Source: an uncultured bacterium (GTDB lineage Bacteria; Hydrothermota; Hydrothermia; B15-G9; WFZT01). Taken from it: 64,000 bases of DNA. Position numbers and translations under genes: made by a program. Where the stretch lies: the NCBI GenBank assembly GCA_964398355.1, contig CAYNMM010000047.1, forward strand, positions 11,738 through 75,737, read 5' to 3'. Below are positions 2,776-54,894 of this stretch, one piece after another; the first letter of the stretch is position 1, and each line of letters begins with the position of its first letter. The notes beneath the pieces are model-generated. The model worked only from the letters and a program-made list of their open reading frames with translations, did not search any database and was not told the DNA's origin.

Positions 2776-3513
2776 TTAAACTTCTTTTAGTAACCATTCT
2801 AACATGACTTCGCTAACCTCACGGGCTTTCTCAATCATTACCATGTGTCCAGCATCTTTTACCACGTAAAGCTTAGCCAGGGGAAGAACTTCCTTCATTT
2901 TAAGAATATCCTCTAAAGGAACAAGTTTGTCTTTTTCACCTTGTATCAATAAAACTGGATTTCCGAACTTTTGAAGCTCCTTTTCGTAATTGACATCTGA
3001 AACTGCCTTCAGATCGCATTCAAGTGCACTCTTTGACTTTGACAATATAATGTCAGCGGTTTTCAAGCACCGTTCAATTGCTTCCTCAGAATAAAACAGG
3101 TTTCGGCAAAATTCAAAAGAGCTTTCGGGAGGGTCTCTTTTTTCTATCCTATAGGAGGAGGATATCAGCACAACACCATTGGGAGTCTCTCCATTTTTAA
3201 TATATTCCTCGATAATCAAACCACCCATTGAGTGTCCAACTAACACCAGTTTATCAGTAGTCAAATTGAGTTTTCTAATAAATTCTTCGAGAAATTCTGC
3301 ATAACAGAGAATACTACTGCAAGGAGATCCACCGCTATTTCCATGACCGGGTAAATCAACTGCATAAAGGTTAAAAAAATCTTTTAGATGTTCAAGTTGA
3401 TAGTACCAGTTAAGGTGATTTCCCCCAGCTCCGTGCAAAAGTACAAGATTTTTTTGACCACCTGTTCTTACTGAATAAAAAATCCTGTTCCCCCGGACCT
3501 TTAAATATGGCAT
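2776..3513 (-). CDS. alpha/beta-fold hydrolase
   Basis: 245 aa. HGAGGNHLNW oxyanion region and GHSMGG nucleophile elbow. Confidence 0.75.
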   Translation of the reverse strand: MPYLKVRGNRIFYSVRTGGQKNLVLLHGAGGNHLNWYYQLEHLKDFFNLYAVDLPGHGNSGGSPCSSILCYAEFLEEFIRKLNLTTDKLVLVGHSMGGLIIEEYIKNGETPNGVVLISSSYRIEKRDPPESSFEFCRNLFYSEEAIERCLKTADIILSKSKSALECDLKAVSDVNYEKELQKFGNPVLLIQGEKDKLVPLEDILKMKEVLPLAKLYVVKDAGHMVMIEKAREVSEVMLEWLLKEV

Positions 3514-3701
3514 TACTCCATTTCTTCTTCGAGTTTCTCAATCTCCTTTTTAATCCTGGAAATCTTTTTGTCGATACTCTCTTCCTTTATGCGAGTTTTT
3601 TCCAGGAACTCCTCACCGGTCCAGGGGGTGACAAAAAGGGCAATTATTCCCCCAAAAAACAGTCCAAGTAAAAACCATACAAAGCTTTCTTTAAACTTCA
3701 T
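3513..3701 (-). CDS. small membrane-anchored coiled-coil protein (hypothetical)
   Basis: 62 aa with one N-terminal TM helix followed by a charged KEE-rich helix. Abuts the hydrolase start (ATG/stop overlap). Confidence 0.35.
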   Translation of the reverse strand: MKFKESFVWFLLGLFFGGIIALFVTPWTGEEFLEKTRIKEESIDKKISRIKKEIEKLEEEME

Positions 3702-3705
3702 AACC

Positions 3706-4077
3706 TTACTCCTTTCTTATTGCATTTTCTATGTATCTTATCTCGACTCTGTCCTTATTAAATTTTACACCAATTACATCAAATCTCAAATCATAGTCAT
3801 GAAATTCCGGGTGTGACTCAACGTAAAGGAGTGCAGTATTCAACAACTTATTTACCTTTGCAGGTCCAATTGTCTCAACTGGATCCATCTCCATTTTATC
3901 ACTCGAAAAACTCCTTACTTCAACAAATACGAGTGTGTGTTTCTTCTTGACGATAATATCAATCTCTCCACCCCTCCATCTGAAATTTCTATCAACGACC
4001 CTATATCCTTTATTCATCAAAAATTTCAGGGCAACATCCTCCCCTTTCCTGCCTCTATCAACCCTGGAATTTCTCAT
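3706..4077 (-). CDS. yraN: YraN-family (UPF0102) endonuclease
   Basis: 123 aa with GEIDIIV...VFVEVRS core typical of YraN. 4-nt ATGA overlap with the upstream GWxTD gene. Confidence 0.65.
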   Translation of the reverse strand: MRNSRVDRGRKGEDVALKFLMNKGYRVVDRNFRWRGGEIDIIVKKKHTLVFVEVRSFSSDKMEMDPVETIGPAKVNKLLNTALLYVESHPEFHDYDLRFDVIGVKFNKDRVEIRYIENAIRKE

Positions 4078-5369
4078 TGTCCCCGTATTTCCTCTTCAGA
4101 AATGTATCTCCTCCAATCAGGCAACCCGGGTTCATCCTTATTGGTTGAGTATATGAGTTTATAATCACCATTATTTTGAATATCTGCAAAGATGAAAACC
4201 CAATTTTCGTTGTAATAGTACCATTTCTCCATATCGGGACGTGGGCCTTCCATTGAAACTCTCTTTATCTCATCAGGTTCTCCATACTTTATCAATATTC
4301 TACCGCGATCCGTATATCTTCCCTTTTTATGGAATCTTGTATATTTCCTGTCAGCCTCTTTCACCCTTGCAATAAACTCCTCAAGAAACTCGTTCTCCGG
4401 TGTTTTCGGATCTGGATCTCTCCTGGCCCAGAATTTCTTCAAAAACAAATATTTTGCCTTCTCGTCTTTAATCTGATGATACTTTTTAAGCTCTGTCGGA
4501 CTGGCAATGTAATCAATGAATGAGATGTAATCCATTAATTCCGGAGAAATTTCCTTCTCACCAAAGGTATAGTAAAAAGGTGCTTCAATCTGAACATGCT
4601 TCTTGTGTGACAAATCTGTAAAATCAAGAACCAATGAGTACTCCCCCTCATCGTTAATGCCATCCAGTAATATTGCTCCTACACCAACATGTTTTTTATC
4701 AATCTTTATCACTTCTGGAGAATTTCTAAGGATAGGAGTACCATCCTCTCGATAAATCAGTGCATTTAATACAGCTGTGCATGTATCTTTACTGTAAATT
4801 TCGTAAAAATAAAGTAGTGTATCCTTCTGTGGGCTATAACTTCTAACAGGATTTGGTATAAAACTCAGGCCATATTTGAAAAAATCAGGTATAGTATCTT
4901 TTGTGACATTCCACAAAAATTCTATATCAGAGGTAAGGAGGGGGGCTGAAGTATCTCCATGAGATATGGATATAGTTGTATCTATAACACCTTTAGAACC
5001 ATTTAAGGAATCTTCAACAACAAATCTTACGTGATATTCTCCAGAGGTAACAAGAAGAGAGAGCTGGTCAATTAGATAATTCTGTCCTGTCCTGGCAGAG
5101 ACATGCTGTTTCCAGTGTTGCTCAACGGGTTTCTTTCCTTTCGATTCAAGGAAGAAATTGTATGTTATTGTCCTTTGACCTGAGGTGTCACTCGAGAAAC
5201 CTTGAAGTTCAACAAGGTAGTAAAACTCCAGTTTTTTGATTCCGGGAGCCTCATTAAAAACGGCATGGTCAAGATAAAATCTGATAGGCCCCTGGCTGAC
5301 TATTATGTTACTTGCATGAGGGAAACTAATTAATCCTGTCAAAAAGATCAGGTGGATAATAAAGTTCAT
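4074..5369 (-). CDS. secreted GWxTD-domain protein (paralogue 2)
   Basis: Start placed at Met12 (MNFIIHLIFLTGLISF, signal-like) with GGAGG RBS. C-terminal domain KKFWARRDPDPKTPENEFLEEFIARV...YTDRGRILIKYGEPDEI...WYYY matches the GWxTD (TIGR04514-type) domain as recalled. Confidence 0.55.
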   Translation of the reverse strand: MNFIIHLIFLTGLISFPHASNIIVSQGPIRFYLDHAVFNEAPGIKKLEFYYLVELQGFSSDTSGQRTITYNFFLESKGKKPVEQHWKQHVSARTGQNYLIDQLSLLVTSGEYHVRFVVEDSLNGSKGVIDTTISISHGDTSAPLLTSDIEFLWNVTKDTIPDFFKYGLSFIPNPVRSYSPQKDTLLYFYEIYSKDTCTAVLNALIYREDGTPILRNSPEVIKIDKKHVGVGAILLDGINDEGEYSLVLDFTDLSHKKHVQIEAPFYYTFGEKEISPELMDYISFIDYIASPTELKKYHQIKDEKAKYLFLKKFWARRDPDPKTPENEFLEEFIARVKEADRKYTRFHKKGRYTDRGRILIKYGEPDEIKRVSMEGPRPDMEKWYYYNENWVFIFADIQNNGDYKLIYSTNKDEPGLPDWRRYISEEEIRGQ

Positions 5370-6465
5370 AATCTCCAAAACCTCCTCGATCAACAAAAAC
5401 AATGGTGAGATTTTTTTCGTAATAATACCAGACCTGATAAGGGAGGGTATTTATATCAAATGGATGACTATCAATCTCATCTGGAGGCCCGAGTTTAATA
5501 TAAACCCGCCCCCGATCCGTCAGGGAACCAAGGAAACGCCCGATAGAAAAATGCTCATTTGCGTAGGTAACCCTTTCGACAAACTCTTCCTCAAGTTCGT
5601 TCTCCGGAGTCCCTGGTGTGGGATCGTGTTTTTTCCAAAACTCTTTCCATAGTTTCATCTTTTCACCAGGTGGTGCCTTCTCTATCTTTTTCACTTCACT
5701 ATAAGGAGCTACATAGACAAGAGCAGGGATGTAATTGTCGAGATTTCCAATCAACACACTCCCACCTTTTTTGAAGATAAAAAAGCCATTTCTAACAAAT
5801 CTTTTATTTTTATCAAGAACGATCTCAAACTTTGCTACATACTTACCTCTGCGTAGCGTATCCGGCATTTCAAATGATATATCAAAGGAGCTGGTCCCCA
5901 TCTTTCTTATAACAGGTGTTAAGACAACCCCCTTTATAGGGACATTAAAAGATTTTTCCTCTTCACAAAGCTCAACCTTTGCCTCTATTCTGTGGAAGGA
6001 TTTACTCACAAGAAACCTGAATCGAATACTGTCTCCTGAGAATGATGGCCAACTTACAGTGTCACCGTTGACAGGTACTGGATCACTCAGACACTCGTTA
6101 TCAAAGCAATAATTTTTTAATTTTTTTACCTCTTCATGTTCAAAAATAGTCTCTCCTGTTCGTGAATTACTAACTTTGAGTTTAATCTTGAACTTATCAA
6201 GCTTCCTGATTCTGAATCTTTCAACCTTGATGAAAGGAGACGGTGTGGTAGTGTCAAATTTCACATACCAGAAATTTCCATATATAACATCCTTTTTCCG
6301 GTCAATTTCAGCTGCTATCTCTGCGGTACCTCTCGATTTCACGCTAATAAACTGTGAGGGAACTAACGCGGCAGCAATAAAAATTTCGATAGAATCCTGG
6401 CCAATGGGGGCTACATAAACATAGGCCTGAGATTTAAAAAGAGATAGTAAAAGAAACAGTAACAA
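5326..6465 (-). CDS. secreted GWxTD-domain protein (paralogue 1)
   Basis: 379 aa, TTG start directly abutting the htpX stop, signal-like N-terminus. C-terminal FWKKHDPTPGTPENELEEEFVERV...LTDRGRVYIKLGPPDEI...WYYY is the same domain as the downstream paralogue. Confidence 0.55.
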   Translation of the reverse strand: MLLFLLLSLFKSQAYVYVAPIGQDSIEIFIAAALVPSQFISVKSRGTAEIAAEIDRKKDVIYGNFWYVKFDTTTPSPFIKVERFRIRKLDKFKIKLKVSNSRTGETIFEHEEVKKLKNYCFDNECLSDPVPVNGDTVSWPSFSGDSIRFRFLVSKSFHRIEAKVELCEEEKSFNVPIKGVVLTPVIRKMGTSSFDISFEMPDTLRRGKYVAKFEIVLDKNKRFVRNGFFIFKKGGSVLIGNLDNYIPALVYVAPYSEVKKIEKAPPGEKMKLWKEFWKKHDPTPGTPENELEEEFVERVTYANEHFSIGRFLGSLTDRGRVYIKLGPPDEIDSHPFDINTLPYQVWYYYEKNLTIVFVDRGGFGDYELYYPPDLFDRIN

Positions 6466-7431
6466 TCAGCTCACCCCCATTCTTTTAGCCATTTCTTCGA
6501 GCCTTCTTATTCTATCTTCAATTGGGGGATGGGTAGAGAATAGTGAGGTGATACCTCCGCCGCGGAATGGGGTTACTATAAATAGATGGGCAGTGGCAGG
6601 ATTTGCTGACTGAAGTGGTCTCTTAGCTGCTCCATAGGCAAGTTTTCTCAAGGCGCTTGCGAGCGCAAGTGGATCCCTTGAAATCTTTGCACCTGTAGCA
6701 TCTGCCAGATATTCCCTTGATCGTGATATTGCAAGCTGTACAATCATGGCAGCAAGTGGTGCAAGTATAGAGATCAGTAGAATGACCAGTAAATTGCCAC
6801 CCCTATCTTCATCATCACCTCCAAAACCACCAAAAATAGCGGCCCAGCGTGCCATATAGGCAAGATAAGTGATGGCTCCAGCAATTGTAGCTGCAACTGT
6901 CATAATTAGAACGTCCCTATTCCTGATATGCGAAAGCTCGTGAGACAGCACTCCCCTCAACTCTCTCTCGGTCAACAGGTTCAGTATCCCGGTTGTCACT
7001 GCTACAGCAGCATGTCCCGGTCCCCTACCCGTAGCAAAAGCATTTGGATGGTCAGTTGGTATGATATAAACCCGCGGCTTGGGGATACCTGCTGCATGTG
7101 CAAGCTCACTAACAATCCTGTGTAACTCAGGAGCTTCCTGAGGAGAGACTTCTTTCGCCCTGTACATAGCGAGAACTATTTTATCACTCCACCAGTAAGA
7201 AACAAAATTCATAACCCCTGCCATCACAAGGGCTATGGTCATCCCACTTTTTCCACCTATCAAATCTCCAATAACCACAAGCAAAATTGTTAAAAGTGCC
7301 AGCAAAAGATATGTTTTTAGTTTCGACATCGAACACCTCCAATTTTTTATCGTTCGATAATTAATATTACACCTTTCTGATGTTGTCAAGCCCTGTAAAT
7401 TAGTAAATAATTTTTCTAAAAAGGAGGTCAA
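6466..7431 (-). CDS. htpX: M48-family zinc metalloprotease HtpX
   Basis: 321 aa with TM segments, [10 protein letters not shown] (HExxH) motif and C-terminal amphipathic tail. Confidence 0.85.
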
Positions 7432-7434
7432 AAT

Positions 7435-8553
7435 ATGGCAAAATACAGGATTGCTCTCCTTCCGGGTGATGGAATTGGAAAAGATGTAATGGACGCAGCA
7501 GAAATTGTTTTACAGAAAATTGACCTGGATGCAGAGTACGTTTACGGCGACATAGGCTGGGAATTCTGGAAAAAAGAGGGAAACCCACTTCCGGATCGTA
7601 CACTGGAACTGCTCAGAAATTCAACATGCGCACTTTTCGGCGCAATAACGTCAAAACCCAAAGAAGAGGCTCAAAAAGAACTGGCCCCTGAACTTCAGGG
7701 TAAAGGTTATGAATATTTCAGCCCAATTGTAAGACTGAGACAGGAATTTGACCTTTACGTAAATTTAAGACCAGCAAAGGCCTTTAAAGGCAATCCTTTA
7801 AATTACAGAGACGACATTGACCTCGTTATTTTTAGAGAGAATACAGAAGGAATGTATGCAGGCGTTGAATTTTATCCTCTTCCAGAAGAAGTTAAACAGG
7901 TCTTATTAAAACATCATCCAAAGATGAAGAGATTCAAGGATATACCGAACGATGAAATTGCAATTTCCACGAGAATCATGACAAAAAAAGGATGTTATAG
8001 AATCGTTAAAGCAGCCTTTGAATATGCACGTAAACATGGAAGAAAATCTGTAACACTGGTTGAGAAACCAAACGTACTTAGAGAAACTGGTGGTCTCATG
8101 CTGAGAATTGCGAGAGAAATTGCTCAAGAATATCCTGATATTGAATACCGCGAAGCCAACGTTGATGCAATGGCTATGTGGCTTGTAAAAAACCCACAAG
8201 ATTACGACATTCTTGTTGCTGAAAATCTCTTCGGTGATATTATATCTGATCTTGCTGCGCAGCTCGTTGGAGGACTTGGATTCGCATCCAGTGGAAATAT
8301 CGGAGATAACTTTGCTGTGTTTGAACCCACACATGGATCGGCCCCTAAATACGCGGGGCAGTACAAAGTTAACCCAATGGCCATGTTACTCGCAGTAAAA
8401 CTTATGCTCGACTGGCTTGGTGAGCATGAGAAAGCACAGAGACTTGAAAAAGCTATAGCTGAAGTTATTGAAGAAGGTAAGGTTAGAACCTACGACATGG
8501 GGGGTACATCATCAACACTTGATGTGGCAAGAGCAGTTGCAGAGAGGATTTAG
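7435..8553 (+). CDS. isocitrate/3-isopropylmalate dehydrogenase family protein
   Basis: 372 aa. N-terminal [13 protein letters not shown] and [19 protein letters not shown] motifs of the beta-decarboxylating dehydrogenase family. LeuB versus Icd cannot be resolved by eye. Confidence 0.8.
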
Positions 8554-44685: not shown

Positions 44686-45050
44686 GGGGGCGTAAGGATT
44701 CGACGGGGGTAGCGTGGTCCAGGAGGTGCATGCCGAGGTGCCGTCACCTCGTAAAACAGGCGGCGAAAAACAATTCCCGAGTACAACTATGCAATGGCTG
44801 CCTAATTGATCGGCAGCCCGCCCTGTGGAGAGGTTGGCTCCCGACTCGCCACAAGGGTGTCATAGACAGGGAGCTTGGCCCTGATTCTCGCTCCGGTTGG
44901 GTCAGGGCGACAGTATAAACCGGAGGGACCTCCAGAATCTCCCTCGCCTGCCAGGGAGCTGGAGGCTCCACAGTAAAAGGCAGGCTAAGCATGTAGGACC
45001 TTCTGGGTCATTACCCCCGGACGCGGGTTCGATTCCCGCCGCCTCCACCA
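44686..45050 (+). ncRNA. ssrA: transfer-messenger RNA (tmRNA)
   Basis: 5' GGGGGCGUAAGGAUUCGACGGGGG and 3' GGACGCGGGUUCGAUUCCCGCCGCCUCCACCA read directly. Acceptor stem pairs with a G3-U70 wobble. Internal tag frame ends ...IPEYNYAMAA-TAA. The overlapping ORFs in the track are artefacts. Confidence 0.9.
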
Positions 45051-52994: not shown

Positions 52995-53690
52995 TCAGGA
53001 AGATGAGAATTTCCCGTCAGGAATGAGTTTCCCATCGAGTAGTTTGTAGGATTTTTTAAAAAATTTTTTAAGTTCGTCATTGTGAGTTACCAGTACAATC
53101 GTAACTCCTCTTTCATTCAGCGATTTGAGGAGTTCCATTAGCAGGTCAGCATTATCTCTATCAAGGTTACCAGTGGGTTCATCTGCGAGTATGATATCCG
53201 GGTTTGTAATCAGAGCTCTTGCGACTGCGATTCTCTGTCTTTCGCCTCCTGATAATTCTGATGGAAAATGGTGATGTCTGTCTTTGAGTCCAAGTTGATC
53301 AAGTAGTCCAAGGGCTTTTTTTCGAGCTTCATCTGAATTTATCCCCCTGAGTATGAGTGGAAGCATCACATTTTCCAGAGCAGTAAATTCTGGCAGGAGA
53401 TTATAAAACTGAAAAACGAAGCCGATTTTCTTATTTCTTAAATCGGAAATCGCTTCATCTGAGAGGCCGTTTATCGAGATATCTCCATATAAGATCTCGC
53501 CACTGTCTGGATTTTCGAGTGTCCCCATGATGCTTAGAAGAGTGGATTTTCCTGATCCTGATGGTCCGGTGATTCCTATAAAATCACCTCTAATAACCTG
53601 AAGATCAATTCCACGGAGCACATGAATAGTAGTGTTTCCTGAAGGATAGCTTTTTTTTACGTCTTTGAGTGTCACAATCGCGTTATTCAT
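52995..53690 (-). CDS. lolD: ABC transporter ATP-binding protein, LolD-like
   Basis: Walker [12 protein letters not shown], signature LSGGERQRIAVARAL, typical LolD/MacB-type N-terminus. Confidence 0.8.
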   Translation of the reverse strand: MNNAIVTLKDVKKSYPSGNTTIHVLRGIDLQVIRGDFIGITGPSGSGKSTLLSIMGTLENPDSGEILYGDISINGLSDEAISDLRNKKIGFVFQFYNLLPEFTALENVMLPLILRGINSDEARKKALGLLDQLGLKDRHHHFPSELSGGERQRIAVARALITNPDIILADEPTGNLDRDNADLLMELLKSLNERGVTIVLVTHNDELKKFFKKSYKLLDGKLIPDGKFSSS

Positions 53691-54894
53691 TTCTTATGGC
53701 CTCCTGCGGGCTCAGAGATGCGGCTCTATGAGCTGGATAAAGAGTCGCCAGAAAAATTATCAAGAATGTTGCCACAATGATTGTTAAAACGTCTGAAAAT
53801 TTTGTTTGAACGGGAAGGTGATCAACGAAATAGACATCCGGAGGTAGAGAGATCAGTTTATATTTACCGATCAGGAAATTCACAATTACGCCAAAAAAAC
53901 CACCTCCAACTGCACCAAATAGTCCAACAAATCCACCAACCATCATAAAAATTCTTTTAATACCTCTGGAGGTAACTCCGAGTGTTCGTAAAATTCCTAT
54001 ATCTCTCGTTTTCTGGACCACGAGAAGCATTAGCATTGCCACGATAGAGAAGGAGGCAACTACGATGATCAAGATCAGAATAACAAACATTGCAATCTTT
54101 TCGAGTTTTAGAGCCGAAAACAAGCTCCGGTTCATTTCAATCCAGGTGACAATTCGGTAGTCTATGGGGAGAAGCTTTGAGATTTTCCTGGCAAATTCAT
54201 TGGCGCTGTACGGATTTTTCAATTCTACTTCTACGCCCGAAACTCCGGTAGAAATACCGGAGACATTTCTCGCTCCTGCAAGGTCTGTGAGTACAATGCT
54301 TGTGTTAAAGTCGTATATCCCAAAGTCAACAACGCCTGTGACTTCCATATTTCTCGCCCTTATACCGGAGAGGAGATTTGTAGATTTACCCCTGAAGGTT
54401 AGAATAGTAATCGTGTCGCCCGGATATGCATTCATATCTGAGGCAAGGAGAGTTCCAAGCACGACCTTATCTTTACCCAGGTCAAATTCTCCTGTAACCA
54501 CAGAGTTTTCCAACTCTAATAAGCGTGGGTCTTTGAGGAAATCCACTCCTTTAAGTACTACACCGTCGGCCTTATCTCCCTTTTTAACGACACATTTAAC
54601 CATAATGTAGGGATTTGCTGACTTGACCTCACGGAATTTTTTGAGGATGTTGATAATTGAATCCGGGTGTTCAACGGGATTTCCATAGTAGTTTGTGATA
54701 ATGATATGCGGATTTATCCCCAGTATGCGTTTTTTTAATTCCTGATGCATACCAGACATCACGCCAATCACAATTACAAGGGCAGCAACTCCCAGGAATA
54801 CCCCGAGAATTGAGAAAAATGACAGGTACGATAGTACACCCTTACCGGTTAACTTGAGATATCGAAGGGCAATAAAGAGCTCAGCTTTCTTCAT
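53683..54894 (-). CDS. LolC/LolE-family (FtsX-like) lipoprotein-release permease
   Basis: 403 aa. N-terminal FIALRYLK, large periplasmic loop, 4 TM. Confidence 0.8.
   Translation of the reverse strand: MKKAELFIALRYLKLTGKGVLSYLSFFSILGVFLGVAALVIVIGVMSGMHQELKKRILGINPHIIITNYYGNPVEHPDSIINILKKFREVKSANPYIMVKCVVKKGDKADGVVLKGVDFLKDPRLLELENSVVTGEFDLGKDKVVLGTLLASDMNAYPGDTITILTFRGKSTNLLSGIRARNMEVTGVVDFGIYDFNTSIVLTDLAGARNVSGISTGVSGVEVELKNPYSANEFARKISKLLPIDYRIVTWIEMNRSLFSALKLEKIAMFVILILIIVVASFSIVAMLMLLVVQKTRDIGILRTLGVTSRGIKRIFMMVGGFVGLFGAVGGGFFGVIVNFLIGKYKLISLPPDVYFVDHLPVQTKFSDVLTIIVATFLIIFLATLYPAHRAASLSPQEAIRNE

Follow-up and report, generated by a model that had tools for sequence, protein, structure and literature searches.

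A conserved two-gene GWxTD cassette and its clade-specific linkage to htpX in candidate division WOR-3

A 64,000-nucleotide stretch of DNA from an uncultured bacterium (contig CAYNMM010000047.1 of assembly GCA_964398355.1, positions 11,738 to 75,737), referred to here as the window, carries on its minus strand the gene of HtpX, an M48-family inner-membrane zinc metalloprotease, followed directly by two genes encoding the GWxTD-domain proteins GWxTD-A and GWxTD-B (A and B below). Sequence comparison across several phyla showed that the A-then-B pair is an ancient paralogy and the core conserved unit of the locus, not a local tandem duplication, and that the linkage of this pair to htpX is a feature of one WOR-3 clade. 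As an explanation we propose that A and B may be two subunits of an ancient, autonomous cassette of exported envelope proteins, which is partnered with interchangeable membrane machines and is co-expressed with htpX in this organism, a reading that in our judgement stands about even.

The conservation of the pair was evaluated in 80 GWxTD loci with 10-kb flanks from GTDB species-representative genomes, the best 80 of more than 524 matches, whose open reading frames (ORFs) were searched with the GWxTD profile and with the neighbouring proteins of the window. Two adjacent, co-directional GWxTD genes were found in 48 of these loci, confirming that the tandem arrangement, pointed out in an earlier, sequence-only note on this DNA, is conserved elsewhere. 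The pairs originate from WOR-3, Hydrothermota, Zixibacteria, UBP2, Acidobacteriota and metagenome-assembled genomes (MAGs) labelled Ignavibacteria. The C-terminal domain encoded by the first gene is closer to that of window A in all 48 pairs, and the one encoded by the second gene is closer to that of window B in 45 of them, with the second genes sharing a B-specific tail, [HY]S...E....W. Since a six-sequence A-type alignment served as the query of the survey, A-like first genes were selected for; the resemblance of the second genes to B is an independent observation. The two genes nearly always abut or overlap, and in many lineages their junction is typically a 4-nt overlap or a gap of a few nt. 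The window carries the same cassette, with the B-type gene behind the A-type gene on one strand and an overlap of 44 nt between them.

As each of the two types is conserved in its own right and their order is kept, the duplication predates the split of WOR-3, Hydrothermota, Zixibacteria, UBP2 and Acidobacteriota, and such an intact cassette is the pattern expected of two subunits made at a fixed ratio. A recent, lineage-specific tandem duplication, with two copies diverging without a paired function, could also account for adjacent, co-directional paralogues whose pairwise BLAST similarity is confined to the C-terminal domain. Yet both the types and their order are kept in 45-48 of the 48 pairs across those phyla, and this cross-phylum A/B orthology rules out the recent duplication, to which we assign a negligible probability.

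Both proteins clearly exceed the cutoffs of the two family models, with TIGR04514 scores of 101.2 bits for A and 91.5 bits for B (cutoff 28) and PF20094 scores of 34.9 and 45.4 bits, respectively (cutoff 26.9), in agreement with the assignment made in the earlier note. The domain occupies residues 248-349 of A (5419-5724, minus strand; TIGR04514 model positions 5-105 of 105) and residues 294-397 of the 442-aa ORF of B (4212-4523, minus strand; model positions 4-105 of 105). The family motifs FW-x3-DP-x-P-x-TP-x-NE, G-x-x-TD-x-G, G-P-PD and W-Y-Y were found in this order in A and B, together with the further conserved elements F.D and G.Y.L, and all invariant columns of an 18-sequence GWxTD alignment are present in both. 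In place of G-W-x-T-D, A carries G-S-L-T-D and B carries G-R-Y-T-D. Residues with aromatic, acidic or amide side chains make up most of the invariant positions (W, Y, F, D, N, E, R, G and P), and no Cys, His or Ser is conserved, a residue pattern that would fit a binding module better than a hydrolase. A search with the full-length GWxTD profile retrieved 20,899 clusters at 50% identity (E <= 1e-3), 5,286 of them at E <= 1e-30; most clusters are 420-450 aa long and match from end to end, and A and B agree with this dominant ~420-450-aa form in length and architecture. Judged by these profiles, the window genes are new members of a family that has been catalogued but is uncharacterised.

The earlier note had described A and B as sharing the C-terminal domain only. 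This holds in pairwise BLASTP, where the C-terminal ~165 residues alone are aligned (36% identity, E 7e-24), but not in the comparison of independent A-only and B-only orthologue alignments from which the C-terminal domain had been removed, in which the N-terminal halves are homologous as well (profile-profile probability 93.8%, E 1.7e-7, 180 columns). AlphaFold2 models of A (m347cac23fed8, predicted local distance difference test (pLDDT) 85.6) and B (mcd9197f4519a, pLDDT 90.3) both contain a disordered hydrophobic N-terminus, two beta-sandwich domains and a C-terminal alpha/beta domain in which about five helices precede a sheet of four strands. The N-terminal profile match and the common domain plan of the models together show that A and B are full-length paralogues, with B carrying in addition the B-type C-terminal tail that is kept in second genes of other phyla.

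Structural matches of the tandem beta-sandwich part include RbmA, Spo0M/arrestin-like proteins, transglutaminase C-terminal barrels and macroglobulin MG domains, all at 5-15% identity with a large root-mean-square deviation and with the GWxTD domain excluded, which amounts to a generic likeness of fold and not to membership in any of these families. For the N-terminal part of A and B these matches indicate a generic scaffold of the immunoglobulin/fibronectin type III (Ig/FnIII) kind. A profile search of PDB sequences retrieved no counterpart of the GWxTD domain at E up to 10, and no second family was detected in a permissive Pfam scan of the isolated GWxTD domains and the N-terminal halves.

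Both proteins begin with a short hydrophobic segment, MLLFLLLSLFKSQA in A and MNFIIHLIFLTGLISFPHAS in B, which lacks a basic n-region and is modelled with low pLDDT. Putative cleavage sites directly behind these segments, between SQA and Y in A and between HAS and N in B, are conserved in the orthologues, and more distant homologues possess ordinary MKK-type signal peptides. The N-termini look signal-like, and A and B are probably soluble proteins exported by the Sec pathway.

In the window, the htpX gene (6466-7329, minus strand; 287 aa, with an HELSH motif) is followed without a gap by the gene of A (5326-6465, minus strand; 379 aa, with orthologues P0017-P0034), of which the TTG start at 6465 adjoins the htpX TGA (6466-6468) in the same frame. 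A Shine-Dalgarno-like GGGGGTGA is located inside the 3' end of htpX (6471-6478, minus strand), 5 nt before this TTG. The gene of B (4074-5369, minus strand; 431 aa from the ATG at 5369) overlaps that of A by 44 nt and has its own GGAGG ribosome-binding site inside the 3' end of the A gene (5382-5386, minus strand), and the stop codon of B overlaps the ATG of yraN in an ATGA, so that all three junctions are as the earlier note had described them. The 431-aa form of B agrees with the JGI gene call on another contig (P0001, 100% identical, 431 aa), and the 44-nt overlap, also called in a 63%-identical relative (L001), is kept in the clade of the window. The htpX reading frame is open to a TTG at 7431 (ORF 6466-7431, minus strand); its start is likely to be the ATG at 7329, because alignments to the HtpX models begin only at ORF residue 35, which is this ATG, and GGAGGTG is found four nt upstream. 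The orthologue in L001 has 286 aa.

Adjacency to htpX is not confined to this genome. In nine loci of the 80-locus survey (L004-L007 and L009-L013) the pair follows htpX directly. Eight of them are labelled WOR-3; the remaining one, L012, is labelled 'uncultured bacterium' and clusters with a WOR-3 MAG (L009). In a neighbour-joining tree of A proteins, the htpX-linked members fall into three deep subclades, and those outside the subclade of the window are only 28-30% identical to window A. The flanks vary by subclade. Upstream of the trio lie an isocitrate-dehydrogenase-like gene in divergent orientation, the gene of topoisomerase I or different genes, and the trio is followed by yraN or by the gene of an ABC (ATP-binding cassette) ATPase. 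The junction between htpX and A is coupled in all ten linked loci, the window included (in five a stop codon directly abuts TTG, four have an ATGA overlap, and the last has a gap of 3 nt), and a GGGG(G/A)T Shine-Dalgarno-like motif precedes the A start in the 3' end of htpX in all ten. This recurrence points to more than chance synteny in one genome. Stop-codon read-through, which would fuse HtpX to A across the in-frame TGA-TTG, was considered and rejected, as five of the loci are out of frame (the four with ATGA) or gapped (L009, with a separate ATG) and a stop is present in every locus.

Outside these loci the linkage is absent. The other 71 of the 80 GWxTD loci have no htpX, including WOR-3 loci L024, L052, L058 and L075 and Hydrothermota loci L008 and L016, in which the pair or a single gene is located behind a tRNA synthetase, YceD, OmpA-family or other gene, and no M48 gene was found beside the pair in other phyla in the survey. 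The reverse survey covered 80 metagenomic loci with an HtpX 54-86% identical to that of the window, 62 of them informative (at least 600 nt downstream); GWxTD genes follow htpX in a single informative locus, which belongs to the window's own lineage. Hence the fixed linkage suggested in the earlier note stands for nine other WOR-3-type, species-level loci in three subclades, but not for 71 of 80 GWxTD loci and 61 of 62 HtpX loci, and the linkage is, on these two surveys, a feature of one WOR-3 clade.

The main rival explanation is that there is no functional link to HtpX at all, the cassette having landed beside htpX in the ancestor of one WOR-3 clade and having been kept there by genome packing. 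In the window, 23 of 40 same-strand neighbour pairs (58%) abut or overlap, mostly by 4-nt ATGA overlaps, and ~94% of the sequence is coding by longest-ORF calling, indicating a very compact genome; because abutting and overlapping genes are the norm here, tight junctions alone are weak evidence for a functional unit. The two surveys speak for this rival as well, as does the presence of yraN, a small membrane protein gene and a hydrolase gene in the same operon as htpX, A and B, and of the pair behind tRNA synthetase and YceD genes in other WOR-3 genomes. Set against this, the trio of htpX, A and B has outlasted the replacement of both flanks in three subclades whose A proteins are ~30% identical, the coupled layout from htpX to A is kept in 10 of 10 loci, and GWxTD domains have been independently fused to M56, a related class of membrane zinc proteases (see below). 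We regard a cassette without any link to HtpX as a serious possibility, though somewhat short of an even chance.

It was also suggested beforehand that A and B are matured or controlled by HtpX. As substrates, matured or degraded in envelope biogenesis, they would fit the operon linkage and the translational coupling in the WOR-3 clade, and HtpX responds to envelope and secretion stress (PMC8831704). However, as described in the passage of PMC8831704 that cites Shimohata et al. (2002), the active site of HtpX faces the cytosol and the enzyme degrades misfolded proteins of the cytoplasmic membrane, whereas soluble, beta-rich proteins are predicted for A and B beyond the short N-terminal hydrophobic segment, and the pair has no htpX nearby in most lineages. 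Maturation by HtpX, and the substrate reading as a whole, are accordingly very improbable. For the window HtpX we assume, by homology with the E. coli enzyme, an inner-membrane topology with the active site facing the cytoplasm.

To characterise the partners of the pair in other lineages, the four nearest genes to either side of the GWxTD genes were clustered across the 80 loci and the cluster representatives were annotated. A MacB_PCD/FtsX permease gene is located directly upstream of the pair in 26 loci and within four genes of it in 29, the usual order being HlyD adaptor, ABC ATPase, two MacB permeases, A and B. Zixibacteria-type loci of this composition include L021, L022, L026-L028, L030, L034, L046, L050, L054, L059 and L061 among others (e.g. 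L059:7799-11846). Several MacB-linked loci continue with a SpoIIE-GAF phosphatase and an extracytoplasmic function (ECF)-type sigma factor, or with an ABC-2 transporter, and the Zixibacteria-type MacB-GWxTD arrangement looks like a larger conserved envelope locus.

A second, independent association was found in Acidobacteria, where 13 of the best 120 short-form GWxTD matches are fusions of a Peptidase_M56 (BlaR1-type) domain to a C-terminal GWxTD domain, and two more of these 120 carry two GWxTD domains. In P0154 and P0166, the two examined, the M56-GWxTD gene overlaps the upstream gene of a Penicillinase_R (BlaI-type) repressor by 4 nt. GWxTD comes behind M56 in the fusion proteins, with a hydrophobic stretch between the two in P0117, and thereby takes the position that the extracellular sensor has in BlaR1. 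Coordinates of acidobacterial M56-GWxTD genes are L084:5618-7458 and, in both L085 and L086, 5618-7464. These fusions indirectly support a connection of GWxTD domains with membrane zinc proteases.

Other contexts were observed in the family. Further fusions (P0171, P0173, P0252 and P0013), likewise related to the envelope, join the GWxTD domain to Poly_export (Wza-like) and Y_Y_Y domains, a YfiO/BamD-like region or long arrays of tetratricopeptide repeats (TPR). In P0100, P0102, P0110, P0114 and P0121, an unannotated N-terminal extension of ~230 aa includes a transmembrane segment. As these contexts and those described above are all extracytoplasmic, they support export of the stand-alone GWxTD proteins and a binding or sensing role of the domain. 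Recurrent upstream neighbours of their own were seen for most single-copy A-like genes. Such genes are located behind a MiaB/RimO-like radical-SAM methylthiotransferase gene in several MAGs of the Fibrobacteres-Chlorobi-Bacteroidetes (FCB) type (eight of the ten loci with this neighbour); loci with this neighbour include L014, L017, L019, L039, L041, L044, L067 and L077, of which L077 holds a pair. In Eisenbacteria, single A-like genes lie behind the gene of a large LVIVD-repeat protein with an FlgD-Ig-like domain (L055, L056, L066, L076, L081 and L082).

Returning to the proposed cassette of exported envelope proteins, A and B would be made in fixed proportion and act as a heteromer, either in the periplasm or on the outer surface of the cytoplasmic membrane. 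The GWxTD domain, ~110 residues long and rich in invariant aromatic and acidic positions, would serve there to bind or sense some component of the envelope. The genomic partner would be a membrane machine that is interchangeable between lineages. In Zixibacteria-type genomes it would be a MacB-type ABC transporter with an HlyD adaptor. Acidobacteria would have a BlaR1-type M56 zinc protease in this role, to which the domain is fused in cis and which is paired with a BlaI repressor, and the WOR-3 clade of the window would have HtpX. The linkage in the window would then most likely reflect co-expression of the cassette with an envelope-stress protease, A and B possibly modulating HtpX or reporting to it; processing of A and B by HtpX forms no part of the proposal. 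True functional coupling of A and B to HtpX seems to us rather doubtful. A more specific version, which we consider improbable, would make GWxTD a previously unrecognised extracytoplasmic sensor or adaptor module for the control of membrane machines, which acts in cis on M56 proteases and in trans, as an A/B heterodimer, on HtpX in WOR-3 or on MacB in Zixibacteria and relatives. If this were true, the operon would encode an HtpX under periplasmic control by two sensor proteins dedicated to it, a way of regulating HtpX that, to our knowledge, is not known in model bacteria.

Several points weigh against the proposed cassette. HtpX has short periplasmic loops only, and a physical contact with A and B is not obvious. 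The formation of a heteromer and the binding of a ligand are inferred, and a literature search retrieved no experiment on any GWxTD protein. The 80 loci, being the best-scoring of more than 524 A-type matches, are a biased sample. Overlap is the default of this genome, so that the neighbourhood may reflect packing rather than partnership; the operon also holds genes that look unrelated (yraN and the hydrolase), and other WOR-3 pairs are found behind housekeeping genes (tRNA synthetases and YceD).

Among known systems, the window resembles BlaR1/MecR1-BlaI in joining GWxTD proteins to a membrane-embedded HEXXH zinc protease. Unlike BlaR1/BlaI, its protease is an M48 HtpX, which scores 17.2 bits against PF05569 (M56), below the cutoff of 31; A and B are separate ORFs without a fused sensor, with a stop at the junction in 10 of 10 linked loci, the M56-GWxTD fusion being seen only in acidobacterial relatives; and no BlaI/MecI (Penicillinase_R) repressor is encoded among the six genes of the window operon. 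The 26 surveyed A/B loci with an adjacent permease gene resemble the MacB-type (type VII ABC) systems MacAB-TolC, LolCDE and FtsEX-EnvC in that a transporter cluster is combined with genes of an extracytoplasmic partner or substrate, and we know of no GWxTD protein that is a MacB partner or substrate. No MacB-type transporter was found beside the window pair, which has htpX upstream and a divergent dehydrogenase gene beyond. The only MacB-like genes in the window are ~46 kb from the pair and unlinked to it (a MacB/LolC-like permease at 53683-54894 and an ABC ATPase at 52995-53690, minus strand). Like E. coli HtpX (M48B), the window protein has the HEXXH motif; it scores 386.8 bits against the NCBIfam HtpX equivalog NF002826 (cutoff 369) and 135.9 bits against PF01435 (1.8e-39). 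It is 54-65% identical to homologues on many metagenomic contigs outside its own lineage and up to 86% within it. Unlike HtpX in general, it is followed by GWxTD genes, an arrangement confined to the window's own lineage among the 62 informative loci.

The remaining genes of the block, which spans 2776-7431 on the minus strand and consists of six tightly packed genes, lie downstream of the pair. The yraN gene (3706-4077, minus strand) encodes a UPF0102 protein of nuclease-like fold, as evidenced by matches to PF02021 (1.9e-23) and to NCBIfam YraN NF009150 (92.4 bits, cutoff 81). It is found directly behind the pair in eight WOR-3 and Hydrothermota loci, with or without htpX (L005-L009, L012 and L075, and L052 by phmmer); in E. 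coli, yraN is presumably also situated among envelope genes (lpoA and dolP). The next gene (3513-3701, minus strand) encodes a 62-aa single-pass membrane protein that is weakly YtxH-like (PF12732, 1.1e-4, under the cutoff of the model), is present at the same position in L001 and has a match in L007. The last gene (2776-3513, minus strand) encodes an alpha/beta-fold hydrolase (PF00561, 7.1e-28; PF12697, 8.1e-23) and is kept behind the GWxTD pair in L001, L004, L005 and L007. On the other side, a gene of the isocitrate/isopropylmalate dehydrogenase family (7435-8553, plus strand) is divergent from htpX with an intergenic region of ~105 bp, and this divergent arrangement (window 7330-8553; L001 and L004-L007) is conserved only in the subclade of the window. 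Elsewhere in the window, a transfer-messenger RNA (tmRNA) gene was detected at 44686-45050 on the plus strand (Rfam RF00023, 197.5 bits). Its tag was read by ARAGORN as GEKQFPSTTMQWLPN*, without the usual Ala-Ala-type degradation signal at the end, which means that either the tag is atypical or the resume codon was set wrongly.

The closest relatives of the GWxTD domain of A, at 81-85% identity, are found in MAGs labelled candidate division WOR-3, and the genome of the window belongs, on sequence similarity, to this division and not to Ignavibacteria or the FCB group. A literature search found no paper mentioning the GWxTD family, PF20094 or TIGR04514 and no functional description, in line with the view of the earlier note that the domain is uncharacterised and that no such unit has been described; it also yielded nothing useful on HtpX in WOR-3. 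The databases describe a domain only, and no mention was found in the literature searched of the A/B cassette, of the double beta-sandwich half or of the associations with MacB, M56 and HtpX. GWxTD is a large family, with about 20,900 clusters at 50% identity, which is concentrated in poorly studied phyla such as WOR-3, Zixibacteria, Eisenbacteria, Acidobacteriota and relatives of the FCB group. The linkage to htpX is real yet clade-specific and of modest interest alone. Starting points for the function of the family are provided by the A/B core pair, by the three-domain architecture of its proteins, which are probably exported, and by the recurrent neighbours and fusion partners of the MacB, M56 and M48 types.

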